Virus record (IMG/VR): IMGVR_UViG_3300013307_000002 | Span: 1 to 64,000 of that record | Strand: one strand, 5' to 3' | Length of the DNA: 64,000 nt | Source of the DNA: a virus | Shown here: one piece after another, positions 21,399 through 29,020 of the stretch | Layout of the letters: each line of letters starts with the position of its first letter | Numbering within the stretch: the stretch's first letter is position 1 | Notes under the pieces: model-generated | Databases searched by the model: none | Seen by the model: only the letters and a program-made list of their open reading frames with translations | What the model was told of the DNA's origin: nothing | Made by a program: the position numbers and the translations under genes

Positions 21399-22219
21399 TA
21401 AACTATTGATTCATATAATATAAAAAATGTAGGAAATAACCCGTATTTATGTTGACAACGTGATGCCGATATGATAGGCCCGACTATAGAACTAAGCATA
21501 GACTATACTCTGAGTAACTAAGCATTCATTGCTATTGCATAACCATTCATTATCCGCTGAGAAAGATAAAGTCTAAAGCATTAATAGCTAAAGAATGATT
21601 ACATTTCCCAGGGTTAATAAACGTAGATTATTCAGTAGGTTAGTTGTAGTAGAGTTAGTAAGTTGTTGATTCTTCTCTCTTTTCTTCAGAGTGTGTTTGA
21701 GTGTAACGAAAACGTTAAAGATGTTAGTAGAGAGTTATATGCCTGTTAAGTAATTGTAATTAGATTGTTAATAGGATGTTATTCATACTTAGAATAAATA
21801 TAGTAACTTAATGAAATAATTCTTGACATTTACTATTAAATATGTTATAATATACTATTAGAATGATAGTAATAAGTTATAATGTTTTATAGAATTATTA
21901 TTAATTGAAATATTATTATTAGAAATTATAACTCTTAGAATTATTAACAAGGTTAACTCTATTACATTCAGATCCGTAGTCTATAAGTACCAGATTATAG
22001 AGTGATTATTGAGCAGTTAGATTAAGTGGTTGATTTATAAGAAGTTTTATTTGTTGATTGTTGGAACTGTACAAGATACGCATGTACGCGTTCTATCTAC
22101 TGAGCGATGATTGATTGGTACTAGATAGATAAACTGTTTATAAATCAGTAACTTAGATGTTTAGTGCGATGGGATGATAAGAATTTAGAGATTATTTTCT
22201 CTTTAGAATCAATAACTTA
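21399..22219. promoter_or_regulatory. cluster of IHF-binding consensus sites
   Basis: exact WATCAANNNNTTR at 21399-21411(-), 21659-21671(-), 22023-22035(-), 22207-22219(+); one-mismatch copy at 22143-22155(+). Confidence 0.6.
21823..21851 (+). promoter_or_regulatory. consensus sigma70 early promoter
   Basis: TTGACA-17 bp-TATAAT with extended -10 TG and AT-rich upstream sequence. Confidence 0.85.
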
Positions 22220-22251: not shown

Positions 22252-22341
22252 TTGCAGTGAAGGGCGATTCTGATATTATGTATCTCAAGCCAGCAGCAAC
22301 GGCTCAGACAACTAGAAGTTTGGTTGTCGTGCTCTTTAACA
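22252..22341 (+). promoter_or_regulatory. rrn-like promoter 1 plus boxA
   Basis: TTGCAG-16-TATTAT; hairpins; TGCTCTTTAACA at 22330-22341. Confidence 0.75.
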
Positions 22342-22467: not shown

Positions 22468-22579
22468 TTGACAGATTAAAACAGTCTGATAGAATGGGCA
22501 CCAAGTTGAACGGAAAGCCGCGCTGAATAAGTTTAGTAAGCCCCGCAAGATGTTTAGCTAGTAGTACCGCTCTTTAAAA
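22468..22579 (+). promoter_or_regulatory. rrn-like promoter 2 plus boxA
   Basis: TTGACA-16-TAGAAT; CGCTCTTTAAAA at 22568-22579. Confidence 0.75.
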
Positions 22580-22633
22580 ATTTAACTTCAGTCTGGTCTG
22601 ATAAACTATCTACTTAGCAGGGGAAGGTTTATC

Positions 22634-22822
22634 ATGGCAAGAAATACTCTTAAACGTGTGATGTTAGGTTATATCCTAATTGATAACGAAACGGGCGCTG
22701 TATTCGACAGAGGCCCACACGACAGAGAGTGGTCACTAGTGATTAATAAGTCACTGGCAGATACTCTCAGAGATTGGGGCGGCAAGGCTGCCATAGTCGG
22801 GCAAAACGTTGTGTTTAAGTGA
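22634..22822 (+). CDS. first early protein (62 aa), hypothetical
   Basis: purine-rich RBS (GGGGAAGG); gene enclosed by a 28-bp RNA stem. Confidence 0.65.
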   Translation: MARNTLKRVMLGYILIDNETGAVFDRGPHDREWSLVINKSLADTLRDWGGKAAIVGQNVVFK

Positions 22823-22879
22823 TGATAGACTGGCGCTCAGGCGCTGGTTTATCAGACTAGATTGAAGTTGAAAAAATTG

Positions 22880-22977
22880 TTGACCTGACCGGCGATTGCT
22901 GTATAATGGTTAACAAGTTGAGGCGATAAGCCTTAACAGATAACGGTGTAACAGCTTGTTGTCGACGCTCTTTAACA
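22880..22977 (+). promoter_or_regulatory. rrn-like promoter 3 plus boxA
   Basis: TTGACC-16-TATAAT; hairpin GTTGAGGC-GATAA-GCCTTAAC; CGCTCTTTAACA at 22966-22977. Confidence 0.8.
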
Positions 22978-22981
22978 AACA

Positions 22982-23269
22982 GGATGATTACTTAACTAGC
23001 GAAAGCAATCGCTTAGAATGACGCTCAGGCGCTTCTATGATGGTTGTTAGTAGGTTGGTTGTGTGTAGCGGGTAAATAAGCACAATCGACAAGGTTAGTA
23101 GCGAAACAGAAAGCTGATTATCATATCGGGCTTTTGTAGCAGTCTGCCTATCCGGTGAGACTAAGCGCAATAGCTGTAAACGGTAGATGAAAGGTTAATA
23201 AGAAGTGCGAACGCCCACTAAGTTAAGATGACAATACAGAATGTAACAATTCGCTTTTGTCTATCATCC
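22982..23269 (+). ncRNA. candidate structured ncRNA A
   Basis: closing stems GGATGAT/ATCATCC and CTTAACT/AGTTAAG; possible internal pseudoknot; no plus-strand ORF of 60 codons or more. Confidence 0.45.
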
Positions 23270-23287
23270 GAGCGGCTAACGCCGCGC

Positions 23288-23542
23288 CCCGTTTAACAAT
23301 ATGGTTTTGATTCTATCCAAGTATGAGACTAGCGAGATAGTTTAGTGTTGAGGATTGAAAGCAGATAACTCCCTGTTGTAGTTTGATATAGTGATTCTGT
23401 GAGTAGTGGCTTAACGATAATCGCTGATAGTAAAAGTAGGGCATGAGTACGTGATAGGCCGGAAAGTGTGCGAACTGAAAACGGTGATTAGTGCGGCGTT
23501 AGAGATTATTTGGATTAAATAGAATCGCCTTTGTTAAACGGG
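23288..23542 (+). ncRNA. candidate structured ncRNA B
   Basis: perfect 12-bp closing stem CCCGTTTAACAA/TTGTTAAACGGG extended by GATTCTA/TAGAATC and TCCAA/TTGGA. Confidence 0.5.
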
Positions 23543-23725
23543 AGGATAAAATGTAAAGCGTAAAGGTTTACAACCTAAATTAATGTGAGGTGGCTTGGTG
23601 CCTTAATCTGAAAAAGATTATGTGAGCATGAGCCTCTTTACCTGTTGTCAGTGCGGTTACTACTGTGACGGCGCTGATAATGGTAAACAGGTTTTTAAAC
23701 AACACCTTAGCAGGGAGTGAAGTAA

Positions 23726-24022
23726 ATGGAAAAAATAACACTGGTTAGAATGTTTAGACAATTACTTGTTAGTTCAATCGACAAGTTAGGCGCAGGCGGT
23801 ATGAAACCGGAGGCTGTTTATCGGGAGTTTATCGCTCGCAAGGCTAACATCCTCGAAAATGTACACTCTACCACTAACCGCAAAGAGCATTTAGCGTTAA
23901 TGCTTATTGCAAACAAAGTTTATGTGAACCCCACTAAAAAGGGCAGTAGCGAACTGTTAAAGAAAGAGTTTGAAACGTGTTTAAACAAACTCCCTTCAGC
24001 AGTTAACGGTTTTAAAAAGTAG
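23726..24022 (+). CDS. hypothetical early protein
   Basis: 98-aa ORF with GGGAG RBS. Confidence 0.6.
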   Translation: MEKITLVRMFRQLLVSSIDKLGAGGMKPEAVYREFIARKANILENVHSTTNRKEHLALMLIANKVYVNPTKKGSSELLKKEFETCLNKLPSAVNGFKK

Positions 24023-24089
24023 TAAACTGTAGTACAATCCGAGTGTAATAACTCAATCTCATAAATAAATACTTTGAAAGGTAAATAAA

Positions 24090-24971
24090 ATGTCTAAAGT
24101 TGAAATCGTAAAAGGTCAAGATAACATCCGTAGCGTAATTGGCGCAATCGCTGGTAAAGCTAAAGCGTACAAAACCGTTATTTCTAGCGCAATCCTCTCT
24201 GCTTATCAGCACTACCGTTTACACGGTGATTACACCCTGCTGCAAGAAGCGTTAGACACTGTTTTCTCTATCAATTACCGTGATTACTCCGCCGTTGCTG
24301 ATTTTGTTCGCTCTTACACTGAGCTGGAATGTGTTACTCTTAATCAGGGCCGCCGTCAGCGTGTTGAGATCGCTGGAACAATTGAATCTCAGATGGAACG
24401 CCCGGAAAATATGTCCATGAAAGATTGGAACGCTAAGCTGGAGTCTAAGCGTAGTGAAATGATCATCCGTAATGGTCGCTTTGACGATTTTGCTACCGGC
24501 AAGCCGATCCCAATGAAGAATCCTAATTGGGTACAGGGTATGCCTAAAGATGAAAAGCAGGAAGGCGTAGTTTACGACGGCGACATCTTTGCATGGCATG
24601 ATGATGTTAAATGGCTGCGCACTGCTGCCCCTACTGTTGGCGGTGAAAGCACTGAAAACCTGCGAGAGCTGCCGGTAGAGCAAGCGGTAAACGTCGCTGT
24701 TAAACTGGAAGATCGTGTCCTGAAATCCAGCAACAAGCCAGTGTTTGCTGTCCTGATTCATATGATGGAACGTTTTGAAGCTGAAACCGGCGTGTATGCT
24801 ACTGATGAAGAGATTGAAACTTTCCAGCGCCGTGTAAATGCACTGCTGGAGCGCACCAAAGCGCGGTCAGAAAGCAAAGCAGAACGTGAAGCTGCTGAAA
24901 AGCAGGCTGCTGAAGAAAACAGCGGTGAGCAGGTAGTAACAACAGAGCAGGGCGAACCACTGCCTTACTAA
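24090..24971 (+). CDS. hypothetical early protein
   Basis: 293-aa ORF with RBS and high-expression-type codon usage. Confidence 0.75.
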   Translation: MSKVEIVKGQDNIRSVIGAIAGKAKAYKTVISSAILSAYQHYRLHGDYTLLQEALDTVFSINYRDYSAVADFVRSYTELECVTLNQGRRQRVEIAGTIESQMERPENMSMKDWNAKLESKRSEMIIRNGRFDDFATGKPIPMKNPNWVQGMPKDEKQEGVVYDGDIFAWHDDVKWLRTAAPTVGGESTENLRELPVEQAVNVAVKLEDRVLKSSNKPVFAVLIHMMERFEAETGVYATDEEIETFQRRVNALLERTKARSESKAEREAAEKQAAEENSGEQVVTTEQGEPLPY

Positions 24972-25125
24972 TACCTGATTGTATAAAAGTCAAAGGGCAT
25001 AATCTAACAGGTTGTGCCCTTTATTGTATGCAATTATAAGATTTATGTTTACCCCGTCTTAAATGTAACCCTGCTAAGTTATTAGGCGGGGTAGACATAC
25101 CCATTATTACTAGGAAAAATTATCA

Positions 25126-25625: not shown

Positions 25626-25982
25626 ATGAAACAGCAAACAATATCTAAAGAGCGTCGCAATGCGATGCATCGTAATTACAAGGCATACATAGGCAGGCTG
25701 ATTGCCTTGTTCCCTGAAGTGTTTGACCGTGAAAACCCTAAGCCGCTGGCTATCGGTACTGCTGAAATGCTTCTCAGTCTGCCAGCGTTAAAGATGGATG
25801 ATGATCTAGTGTCTGACGTGCTGGCTTGTTGGTGTAGCCGCCGGGAGTATATCCGTGCTGCTTATCAACTGCGGGAACGTTGGAACGTGGTCGGTGTGCC
25901 TGTTGGCCCTATCATTGATTGGCAACAGAAACGTTTTGACACTCTTTATCACAAGATGGTCAAGCGTGGTTTGTATAACTAA
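25626..25982 (+). CDS. proQ: ProQ/FinO-domain RNA chaperone
   Basis: 'LFPEVFDRENPKPLAIG...LACWCSRREY...RWNVVGVPVG' follows the FinO pattern P-x-F...PLKIGI...Y...R-x-DLDG. Confidence 0.75.
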   Translation: MKQQTISKERRNAMHRNYKAYIGRLIALFPEVFDRENPKPLAIGTAEMLLSLPALKMDDDLVSDVLACWCSRREYIRAAYQLRERWNVVGVPVGPIIDWQQKRFDTLYHKMVKRGLYN

Positions 25983-28012: not shown

Positions 28013-28088
28013 GATTCTGTAGTTCAGTTGGTAGAACGGTGGACTGTTAATCCATATGTCGCAGGTTCAAATCCTGCCAGAATCGCCA
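28013..28088 (+). tRNA. tRNA-Asn(GTT)
   Basis: cloverleaf GATTCTG/CAGAATC, loop CT-GTT-AA, TTCAAAT T-loop, encoded CCA. Confidence 0.95.
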
Positions 28089-28094
28089 AACAAT

Positions 28095-28163
28095 GGGAAC
28101 CTGAGCACTCTAGGGGACTAGAATATGAGCAATGGTTAATGACACTCGTGATGGTTCCCACCA
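28095..28163 (+). ncRNA. non-canonical tRNA-like RNA
   Basis: 7-bp acceptor GGGAACC/GGTTCCC plus A-CCA, but only two internal hairpins and no T-loop. Confidence 0.55.
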
Positions 28164-28169
28164 TTCAAT

Positions 28170-28256
28170 GTTGGATTACTCAAGCGGCAACGAGAGCAGA
28201 CTGTAAATCTGTGGCCCATATGGGCTTCGAAGGTTCGAGTCCTTCATCCAACACCA
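28170..28256 (+). tRNA. tRNA-Tyr(GTA)
   Basis: GTTGGAT/ATCCAAC, loop CT-GTA-AA, long variable arm, CCA. Confidence 0.95.
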
Positions 28257-28291
28257 AACAATGCACCTATAGTTAATTTTTGAGGTTTACT

Positions 28292-28501
28292 ATGGCAGAC
28301 TGTAATCGTTGTGGGGATTCTGGGGGAAAGTACTCCCCAAATGAAAACTCTAATAATGGGGTTTTCTGTTACAACTGTATTGATATTGTGTTAGCTGGGG
28401 GCGGAGGAGGTGACTGTAACCCTCGTTACTCTGATAACCCCGGCACAAGGGAAGCTTATAGAAGACTTATGAGCGCCCCAAACTCAGAGTACAAGTATTA
28501 A
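28292..28501 (+). CDS. small CxxC/CxxC zinc-binding protein inserted in the tRNA array
   Basis: GAGG RBS; 'CNRC' and 'CYNC'. Confidence 0.55.
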   Translation: MADCNRCGDSGGKYSPNENSNNGVFCYNCIDIVLAGGGGGDCNPRYSDNPGTREAYRRLMSAPNSEYKY

Positions 28502-28514
28502 TCAAATATATAAT

Positions 28515-28589
28515 GCACCTATAGTTAAATGGATATAACAGGAGCCTTCTAAGCTCTAGTTCTAGGTTCGATTCCTAGTGGGTGTGCCA
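28515..28589 (+). tRNA. tRNA-Arg(TCT)
   Basis: GCACCTA/TGGGTGT, loop CT-TCT-AA, CCA. Confidence 0.93.
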
Positions 28590-28595
28590 TATTTA

Positions 28596-28684
28596 GCCCG
28601 GATGATGAAACTGGTAAACATAGGAGACTTAAAATTTCCCGTCTCGTAAGAGGCTTGCGGGTTCGACCCCCGCTCCGGGCACCA
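28596..28684 (+). tRNA. tRNA-Leu(TAA)
   Basis: GCCCGGA/TCCGGGC, loop CT-TAA-AA, long variable arm, CCA. Confidence 0.93.
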
Positions 28685-28717
28685 AACAAAGTAACTTTCA
28701 GTTCAGTGAGATAAAGT

Positions 28718-28915
28718 ATGAACAGAGAGCAGTCCTTGCACTGGAGGGGTTGGTTAGAAAAACAGCCCATGTTTAATGCGAGAGTTTACTGTGTTAGATG
28801 TATGGCACCTTATAAAATAGGTGAATGTCAAGAGACACTAGATTCTCCGGGTTGCTATTGGAAGGAGAGTAAATGCCCTTCATGTGGGTGTAAACTTTAT
28901 TACAGCCATCTATAG
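28718..28915 (+). CDS. small zinc-finger protein
   Basis: 'CVRC' and 'CPSC' motifs. Confidence 0.5.
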   Translation: MNREQSLHWRGWLEKQPMFNARVYCVRCMAPYKIGECQETLDSPGCYWKESKCPSCGCKLYYSHL

Positions 28916-28945
28916 TAATACATCTAGCAAGAATAACCAAACAAT

Positions 28946-29020
28946 AGGGCTATCGTATAATGGTTATTACATCGGCCTTTGACTCCGATAATCCACGTTC
29001 GATTCGTGGTAGCTCTGCCA
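28946..29020 (+). tRNA. tRNA-Gln(TTG)
   Basis: AGGGCTA/TAGCTCT, loop CT-TTG-AC, CCA. Confidence 0.9.

Follow-up and report, generated by a model that had tools for sequence, protein, structure and literature searches.

A putative boxA-dependent, structured early leader RNA in an uncultured phiEco32-like phage

In the anti-termination of ribosomal RNA (rrn) operons, the boxA element recruits NusB/NusE and their partners, and the RNA polymerase modified in this way resists Rho; the rrn operon of E. coli has tandem promoters (P1/P2), a leader with the order boxB-boxA-boxC and leader-trailer helices, and it contains a second boxA in the spacer between 16S and 23S. Among phages, T7 possesses an early control region that combines the promoters A1-A3 and a boxA-like sequence with an RNase III-processed leader and early mRNAs, the latter bracketed by long-range helices. 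The roles of boxA and of the leader-trailer helices in rRNA are given in PMC10250234. For the related phage 7-11, PMC8948821 reports early transcripts that are long and polycistronic and arise from strong sigma70 promoters, as well as an as yet undefined anti-termination strategy. The large ornate RNAs GOLLD and ROOL are often associated with phages and are of unknown function, according to bioRxiv 10.1101/2024.12.08.627333. In our literature search, which covered open papers without their supplements and did not extend to the original phiEco32 publications, we found no description of a boxA or of a structured RNA in phiEco32-like phages. Here we analyze a stretch of 64,000 nucleotides (nt), hereafter "the window", which is the first 64 kb of the 82,361-bp IMG/VR virus record IMGVR_UViG_3300013307_000002, a record with direct terminal repeats, and we describe a folded, non-coding RNA that is specified by its plus strand directly behind a strong promoter and a boxA.

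A preliminary description of this DNA proposed that positions 22982-23700 comprise a series of structured, stem-closed non-coding RNA domains located downstream of boxA, and this proposal is borne out, for the plus strand, by folding, by covariation and by the matches to boxA. The whole of 22914-23725 is predicted to be the untranslated and heavily base-paired front of a phage early transcript, and we consider it probable that the locus specifies an rrn-style, boxA-dependent, structured early leader RNA of an uncultured phiEco32-like phage. The features to which the following discussion refers are (ORF, open reading frame; aa, amino acids):

21823-21851, plus strand: promoter P1, upstream of P3
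22468-22495, plus strand: promoter P2, upstream of P3
22569-22872, plus strand: upstream unit, consisting of boxA-2 (22569-22580) followed by a helix (22581-22618 / 22835-22872) that encloses a 62-aa ORF
22880-22907, plus strand: promoter P3, TTGACC-16-TATAAT, with 11 of 12 consensus matches, predicted to drive the RNA
22967-22978, plus strand: boxA-3, GCTCTTTAACAA, a putative rrn-type anti-termination signal about 55 nt 3' of the P3 start
22982-23269, plus strand: domain A, with a length of about 288 nt and GGAUGAU/AUCAUCC as the closing helix, the 5' strand of which begins 3 nt after boxA-3
23272-23285, plus strand: small G+C-rich hairpin between the domains, 5 pairs, one of them compensatory (G-C to C-G)
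23288-23542, plus strand: domain B, 255 nt, with a 12-bp closing helix and further helices (stalk of about 31 bp overall)
23543-23557, plus strand: Shine-Dalgarno-like GGAGGA with an ATG TAA start-stop mini-ORF, right after domain B
23589-23637, plus strand: hairpin C1, long and bulged, part of the 38-pair consensus of the 3' part
23638-23686, plus strand: hairpin C2, long and conserved
23706-23728, plus strand: ribosome-binding motif CTTAGCAGGG with the start codon (ATG, 23726) of a 98-aa early ORF, at which the untranslated RNA has its 3' limit

The plus strand of 22982-23700 folds at -220.5 kcal/mol (z = -4.0 against shuffled sequences), compared to -144.1 kcal/mol (z = -1.8) for the minus strand, and the base composition of the fold is G-rich and C-poor, with a GC skew of +0.2. 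Homologous stretches are present in two other IMG/VR phage genomes, L004 and L005, whose terminases are respectively 95% and 93% identical to the terminase of the window; these two genomes and the window form the comparison set. The consensus structure was calculated with RNAalifold from the three sequences, with slid alignments and 500 shuffles as controls for domains A and B. The RNA sequences are 54-72% identical to each other, and standard pairs are found in 501 of the 523 modelled pair cells (95.8%, 76 of these cells being G.U), an agreement inflated by the construction of the model from the same three sequences; when the same cells are read on the minus strand, 82.2% are paired. This contrast between the strands, together with the G.U pairs, indicates that the molecule under selection is the plus-strand RNA. 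Compensatory changes affect 25 of the 71 pairs of domain A, in which 93.4% of the cells are paired (29-47% in the slid controls, with 1-5 compensatory changes), and 23 of the 66 pairs of domain B, in which 97.0% of the cells are paired (38-44% in the slid controls, with 2-5 compensatory changes); for each of the two domains, none of the 500 shuffles scored as high. In the 3' part, which consists of the long hairpins 23589-23637 and 23638-23686, 8 of 38 pairs show compensatory changes. This is the covariation among related phages to which the preliminary description had looked for support.

Variation at a much shorter distance, which provides a partly independent control, is available from contigs of three public runs (X2, X3 and X4), which are about 96-98% identical to the window. 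Within 22982-23700, 34 variant substitution sites are listed, 20 of them in modelled pairs, and 17 of these 20 keep a standard pair, in a tally that covers the listed differences (eight further differences being unlisted) and omits five places outside 22982-23700 as well as, for 23483, the alternative letter given in second place (X4, record 8). The substitutions are mostly pair-preserving transitions, and two pairs are doubly compensated, namely 23242/23249 (U-A to C-G) and 23450/23461 (C-G to U-A). Two of the three pair-breaking changes fall into the small hairpin 23272-23285, which displays a GCAA tetraloop in L004 and L005 and is re-registered, with the loss of one base, in X3 and X4. Those parts of the stretch that are not covered in X4, or in the run X14 considered below, are uninformative.

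The region appears to be devoid of protein-coding function. As stated in the preliminary description, it contains no plus-strand ORF that reaches 60 codons; the longest ORF that overlaps 22982-23700 on this strand comprises 32 aa (23622-23720). Among the window, L004 and L005, no ORF of at least 20 aa is kept in place or length, and a reading of the region as a series of small ORFs was rejected on the grounds of these differences. At the site of the mini-ORF that follows domain B, L004 and L005 exhibit a purine-rich Shine-Dalgarno-like run, TTG, one codon and TAA. Judged from its sequence, the GGAGGA/ATG TAA element could be a ribosome landing or standby site within the leader.

Every sequence word quoted in the preliminary description is present in its place, and the comparison of genomes discriminates among the helices that had been built from them. 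The closure of domain A by GGATGAT/ATCATCC (22982-22988 / 23263-23269) is confirmed, as 21 of 21 cells are paired in the three genomes, with one compensatory pair. On the other hand, the second helix proposed for this domain, CTTAACT/AGTTAAG, has 76% of its cells paired and is not kept in L004, and the proposed pseudoknot (TTGTAGC/GCTGTAA with 62% and TCTGCC/GGTAGA with 78% of the cells paired) is not supported, a competing nested hairpin, 23142-23161, having 96% of its cells paired, four covarying pairs and an invariant loop (23146-23152). Domain B is closed in the way that had been suggested, by the 12-bp helix 23288-23299 / 23531-23542 together with GATTCTA/TAGAATC; these form a stalk of about 31 bp, interrupted by small internal loops, which is 97% paired and contains a C-G to U-A swap in L005. 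The 5' strand of this stalk includes a boxA-like sequence, UUUAACAAU. The four-way junction envisaged for a third domain, closed by GTTTACA/TGTGAGC, is not supported, the consensus being instead the bulged hairpin C1, whereas the last long hairpin of the preliminary description is conserved as C2. The run of U residues found 3' of C2 in the window is not conserved, so that C2 does not qualify as a conserved terminator, and the search for terminator-like sites found none at this place. Upstream of C1, some 85-100 nt that the window lacks are present in L004 and L005, and the variable insertion point between domain B and C1 corresponds to positions ~2440-2560 of L004 and ~3815-3935 of L005 (minus strand).

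Two sets of complementary segments could connect parts of the RNA that are remote in sequence. The loop GCCUAUC of domain A (23146-23152) is complementary to the hairpin loop GAUAGGC of domain B (23453-23459), and both loops are located in blocks that are identical in all three genomes and contain none of the listed variant sites; they represent a candidate loop-loop contact that would join the two domains. In addition, boxA-3 (TTTAACAAA, 22971-22979) is complementary to the segment 23530-23538 in the 3' strand of the domain B closing helix, so that this strand could pair either with boxA-3 or with the internal boxA-like element. A 10-nt inverted repeat (23276-23285 / 23493-23502) is not kept in L004 or L005 according to the alignment, and was treated as a chance occurrence or a window-specific feature.

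The position of the RNA within the genome is that of the front of an early operon. Late genes run leftward up to 21101 and all genes from 22634 on run rightward, while the ORF-poor stretch between them contains three strong sigma70-type promoters on the plus strand, at 21823, 22468 and 22880, the last of which (P3) is kept in L004 and L005 according to the alignment. Exact matches to GCTCTTTAAMAA occur three times in the 64 kb (0.03 expected), all on the plus strand, at 22331, 22569 and 22967. All three copies lie in the ORF-poor stretch and follow the pattern GCTCTTTAA(A/C)AA; they correspond to the boxA of enterobacterial rrn operons, the consensus of which is GCUCUUUAACAA. A promoter-like site with 11-12 of 12 matches is found upstream of each copy, and the occurrence of a boxA matching GCUCUUUAACAA shortly after a strong promoter is the arrangement expected of rrn-type anti-termination. 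BoxA-3 is kept as GTTCTTTAACAA in L004 and L005. Hairpin-forming sequence is found between P3 and boxA-3 (22907-22965), and a hairpin precedes boxA-1 (22307-22328). The order in which a boxA is followed by the 5' strand of a long-range helix holds for boxA-2 as it does for boxA-3 and domain A, and the boxA-2 helix is kept in L004 (22-nt arms) and L005 (23-nt arms). No terminator-like site was found between the folded RNA and the next ORF, which indicates that the RNA forms, at a minimum, the 5' leader of the early operon; this ORF, of 98 aa, is conserved as 99 aa in L004 and 95 aa in L005. The 10-mer CTTAGCAGGG is found on the plus strand at 22613-22622 and 23706-23715, as the ribosome-binding sites of the 62-aa and the 98-aa ORFs, and its exact complement is found at 25069-25078 (minus strand), within a predicted hairpin (25045-25098).

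Among the described systems, the E. coli rrn operon shares with this locus the tandem near-consensus promoters, the exact boxA at a distance of about 55-70 nt downstream from P2 and P3, the large untranslated structured RNA, the long-range helices with their 5' strand after boxA, and a second boxA-like element before the second domain, which we liken to the boxA of the 16S-23S spacer. However, the product of the window is not rRNA, its length does not exceed about 740 nt, it continues directly into protein genes, and its body varies between phage lineages. T7 is likewise a podophage whose early region begins with several strong host promoters in succession and in which long-range stems bracket segments of the early RNA, but its leader is short and is not known to form a conserved multi-domain RNA. 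GOLLD and ROOL provide a precedent for an intricately folded, protein-free-looking RNA of several hundred nt in phage DNA, with tRNA genes (in the window, 4 kb downstream) in the neighborhood; they differ from the window RNA, which has no Rfam match and resides in an mRNA leader behind boxA. The tRNA genes of the window are five (Asn, Tyr, Arg, Leu and Gln), and they lie on the same strand as the RNA, at 28013-29020.

The preliminary description regarded the RNA as undescribed, and the Rfam searches, which returned no match to it, agree with this view. At gathering scores, the search of the whole window detected only five tRNAs, with no SSU, LSU or other match to the RNA, and the Rfam 15 gathering thresholds of families including GOLLD, ROOL, HEARO, OLE, RNase P, tmRNA and 6S were not reached in the window RNA. 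At E-values up to 10, the region 22500-24100 yielded eight sub-threshold listings, far below the cut-offs and chance-like, with no large ornate RNA family among them; the relatives L004, L005, L020 and L036 had no match at gathering thresholds. A blastn search with the RNA region against 50,697 phage records found no match, nor did a tblastn search of the same records with a 293-aa protein encoded downstream of the RNA, and further protein- or pattern-based searches for relatives revealed nothing beyond the L004 and L005 contigs. The 293-aa protein has no Pfam match and no PDB relative, its atlas neighbors are unnamed, and its PHROG matches are weak and of unknown function.

The closest parallel is provided by the phiEco32-like coliphages (Gordonclarkvirinae), to whose portals and terminases those of the window are 61% and about 67% identical, respectively. 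In phage SU7, four promoter-boxA units are followed by about 820 nt without a gene and then by gp105; the 293-aa protein of the window is a homologue of SU7 gp105 and phiEco32 gp124, with 23% identity (E-value 2e-9 in a single pairwise comparison). The ~820-nt stretch is conserved at 75-100% in 98 records of phiEco32-like phages, in most of which it is unannotated, and it is as conserved as the adjacent gene. In an alignment of 12 diverse genomes, compensatory changes are observed in 67 of 241 predicted pairs. Here again a boxA is found directly before the 5' strand of the helix that closes a domain of about 300 nt (domain I), and the 5' strand of the helix that closes domain II (about 285 nt) lies in the boxA-like GCUAUUUAACAAU. 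In the RNAalifold consensus of this alignment, the 5' flank of the last boxA pairs with the Shine-Dalgarno region of gp124 (columns 24-34 / 864-874), thus enclosing the 830-nt RNA; the pairs of this helix are invariant or nearly so and hence lend it no covariation support.

It is quite conceivable, if short of probable, that the window RNA is a very diverged member of this phiEco32-type giant early RNA and that both belong to one ancient family. They occupy the same genomic slot, between an array of tandem promoters with boxA and an early gene of the gp124-like family (as judged from the 23% identity), and both comprise two stem-closed domains of about 260-300 nt followed by hairpins, with strong covariation; in both, the second domain also has UUUAACAAUA(U/A)GGUUU at its 5' strand. 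Moreover, between genomes with a terminase identity of 93-95% the RNA already differs by 28-46%, from which one would expect that at 67% terminase identity no similarity of the RNA could be detected, and an extreme divergence from a common ancestor is plausible. On the other hand, the clade of the window has a 98-aa ORF between the RNA and the gp124-like gene, the layouts of the inner helices are unlike, and blastn finds no similarity between the two RNAs. The covariance models R1 and R2, built for the phiEco32 domains II and I, respectively, have no match in the window, L004 or L005 at default filters, and with the filters off their best matches overlapping 22982-23700 score 3.0 bits (E-value 0.33) and 2.3 bits (E-value 0.36), whereas a true member, L011, scores 336 bits with R1. 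In the reverse direction, a covariance model of domain A of the window clade (R3) matches only boxA in the phiEco32-like loci and in Aeromonas phage BUCT695. Since the models match nothing but boxA across lineages, we do not assign the window RNA to the phiEco32 family and we regard the RNA body as lineage-specific.

BUCT695 (L036, NC_070977; Grimontviridae) looks, from its sequence, like a third lineage with the same layout. At the left end of its genome (560-1445) there are two strong promoters with a boxA-like site after each of them, and then about 690 nt without an annotated gene, which fold with z = -4.2 and are unique within the phage collection. An internal GAUAUUUAACAAUCC pairs with a segment about 180 nt downstream, in a single sequence and thus without covariation support. 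The promoter P3 of the window shares with BUCT695 a 16-nt core, GATTGCTGTATAATGG; a scan for this core yielded seven loci, none with a boxA nearby, and these were treated as chance matches. A MAFFT alignment of BUCT695 with the window clade revealed nothing convincing beyond the promoter and boxA, and the comparison of profiles between the 293-aa protein and BUCT695 gp001, which gave a probability of only 4%, was discarded.

According to the reading that we favor, that of an rrn-style leader, the host sigma70 RNA polymerase would initiate at P3, with read-through also from P1 and P2, and would transcribe boxA, whereupon NusB/NusE and partners would convert it into a fast, Rho-resistant elongation complex, as on the host rrn operons. 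The modified polymerase would then make about 740 nt of ribosome-free RNA, in which two long hairpins come after two domains with closing helices of the leader-trailer type. In domain A, the closing helix has its 5' strand right after boxA, and in domain B this strand overlaps the boxA-like UUUAACAAU, so that a boxA-bound complex at the RNA exit could retain it up to the appearance of the 3' strand, in the manner suggested for 16S rRNA. The modified polymerase would continue into the plus-strand early gene block of more than 40 kb. We infer the action of Nus factors, the co-transcriptional delivery of the helices and any processing by analogy to the rrn operons. A role in cis, as a leader that resists Rho and RNases, provides processing stalks and loads ribosomes, is ranked slightly above that of a released RNA. 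A long early unit behind boxA would fit the long polycistronic early transcripts and the undefined anti-termination strategy of phage 7-11 (PMC8948821).

Several observations weigh against this scenario. Anti-termination needs about 50 nt, which leaves about 700 nt of conserved, elaborate structure unexplained, and the closing helix of domain A has only 7 bp. The internal boxA-like motif of domain B retains only the 3' half of the element, and TTTAACAAT by itself, with 3 occurrences against 1.45 expected, is no rarer than chance. A search for boxA with at most one mismatch in SE131, a Salmonella phage related to 7-11, found two matches, both on the reverse strand (46960 and 51048). Only three diverged genomes carry the RNA, and these are the same three that yielded the model. 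Finally, the RNA library of run X14 contributes a single 151-nt contig (22981-23124), which is no proof of transcription.

A different scenario, which follows the preliminary description and which we find doubtful, is that the closing helices are processing stalks of the RNase III type, at which a precursor would be cut into discrete, stable early RNAs, each about 250-290 nt long; these would function in trans, for instance as decoys, as anti-defense factors or as partners of an RNA-binding protein of the phage or the host. The domain B stalk of about 31 bp, with its small internal loops, is long enough for RNase III, while the 7-bp closure of domain A is short for the substrate requirements of this enzyme. 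A bracketing helix with 38-nt arms is also found around the upstream 62-aa ORF, in analogy to pre-rRNA, and the early mRNAs of T7 are bracketed likewise. The body of the RNA evolves fast with its pairing kept (54-72% identity and 95.8% of the cells paired) and is unrecognizable between lineages, as one would expect of a molecule engaged in an arms race. The invariant complementary loops 23146-23152 and 23453-23459 hint at a compact tertiary fold, like those of large ornate RNAs, but a contact between domains A and B would argue for one RNA rather than several. The lack of a terminator-like site between the RNA and the next gene likewise speaks against release. A potential partner, a 118-aa protein with a ProQ/FinO domain, is encoded 1.9 kb downstream of the RNA.

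This protein (25626-25982) matches Pfam PF04352 with an E-value of 3.6e-12, and its homologues were found in 19 phage records, from phages of Aeromonas, Salmonella, Vibrio, Shewanella and Erwinia, including the Grimontviridae SE131 and BUCT695; none of the 19 records is from a phiEco32-like coliphage.

The least favorable alternative, namely that the region acts as DNA (a replication origin, or a signal for packaging or for the end ejected) or is tiled by small translated ORFs, with the RNA structure being incidental, can draw on the AT-rich divergent region, possibly a genome end, at a distance of about 1 kb, on the GGAGGA and ATG TAA after domain B and on the ORFs of 20-60 aa present on both strands, but it is very improbable in view of the strand-specific pairing with its 76 G.U cells, of the prevalence of pair-preserving transitions and of the failure of any ORF of at least 20 aa to be kept across the three genomes.

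It is tempting to go one step further and to speculate that the locus is a "pseudo-rRNA operon", i.e. that the supergroup of phiEco32 and 7-11 hijacks the host complex for rrn anti-termination and RNA chaperoning, and that the first product of infection is a lineage-specific, giant folded effector RNA. Such an RNA could remain tethered to the polymerase through boxA and confer processivity on it across the 40-kb early block (in this case, the undefined anti-termination strategy of 7-11), or it could be released and, as a fast-evolving molecule, neutralize a host factor or a defense system before any phage protein exists. We regard this extension as rather unlikely as a whole.

If the reading of the locus as an rrn-style leader is true, an untranslated RNA of about 0.7 kb, and not a protein, would be the first product that an entire group of lytic podophages makes in abundance, and the phage early RNA would be made by the transcription machinery that the host employs for ribosomal RNA. 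The layout is not peculiar to coliphages, as it is found also in an uncultured clade from rhizosphere and silage and in an Aeromonas phage. Its promoters, its boxA and the rule that a boxA is followed by a long-range helix are conserved, whereas the body of the RNA turns over completely, and despite this turnover the base pairing is under strong selection. The culturable relatives phiEco32, SU7 and BUCT695 would make it possible to test how early transcription is sustained over long distances, whether the rrn complex chaperones RNAs other than ribosomal ones, and what role the giant RNA may play.

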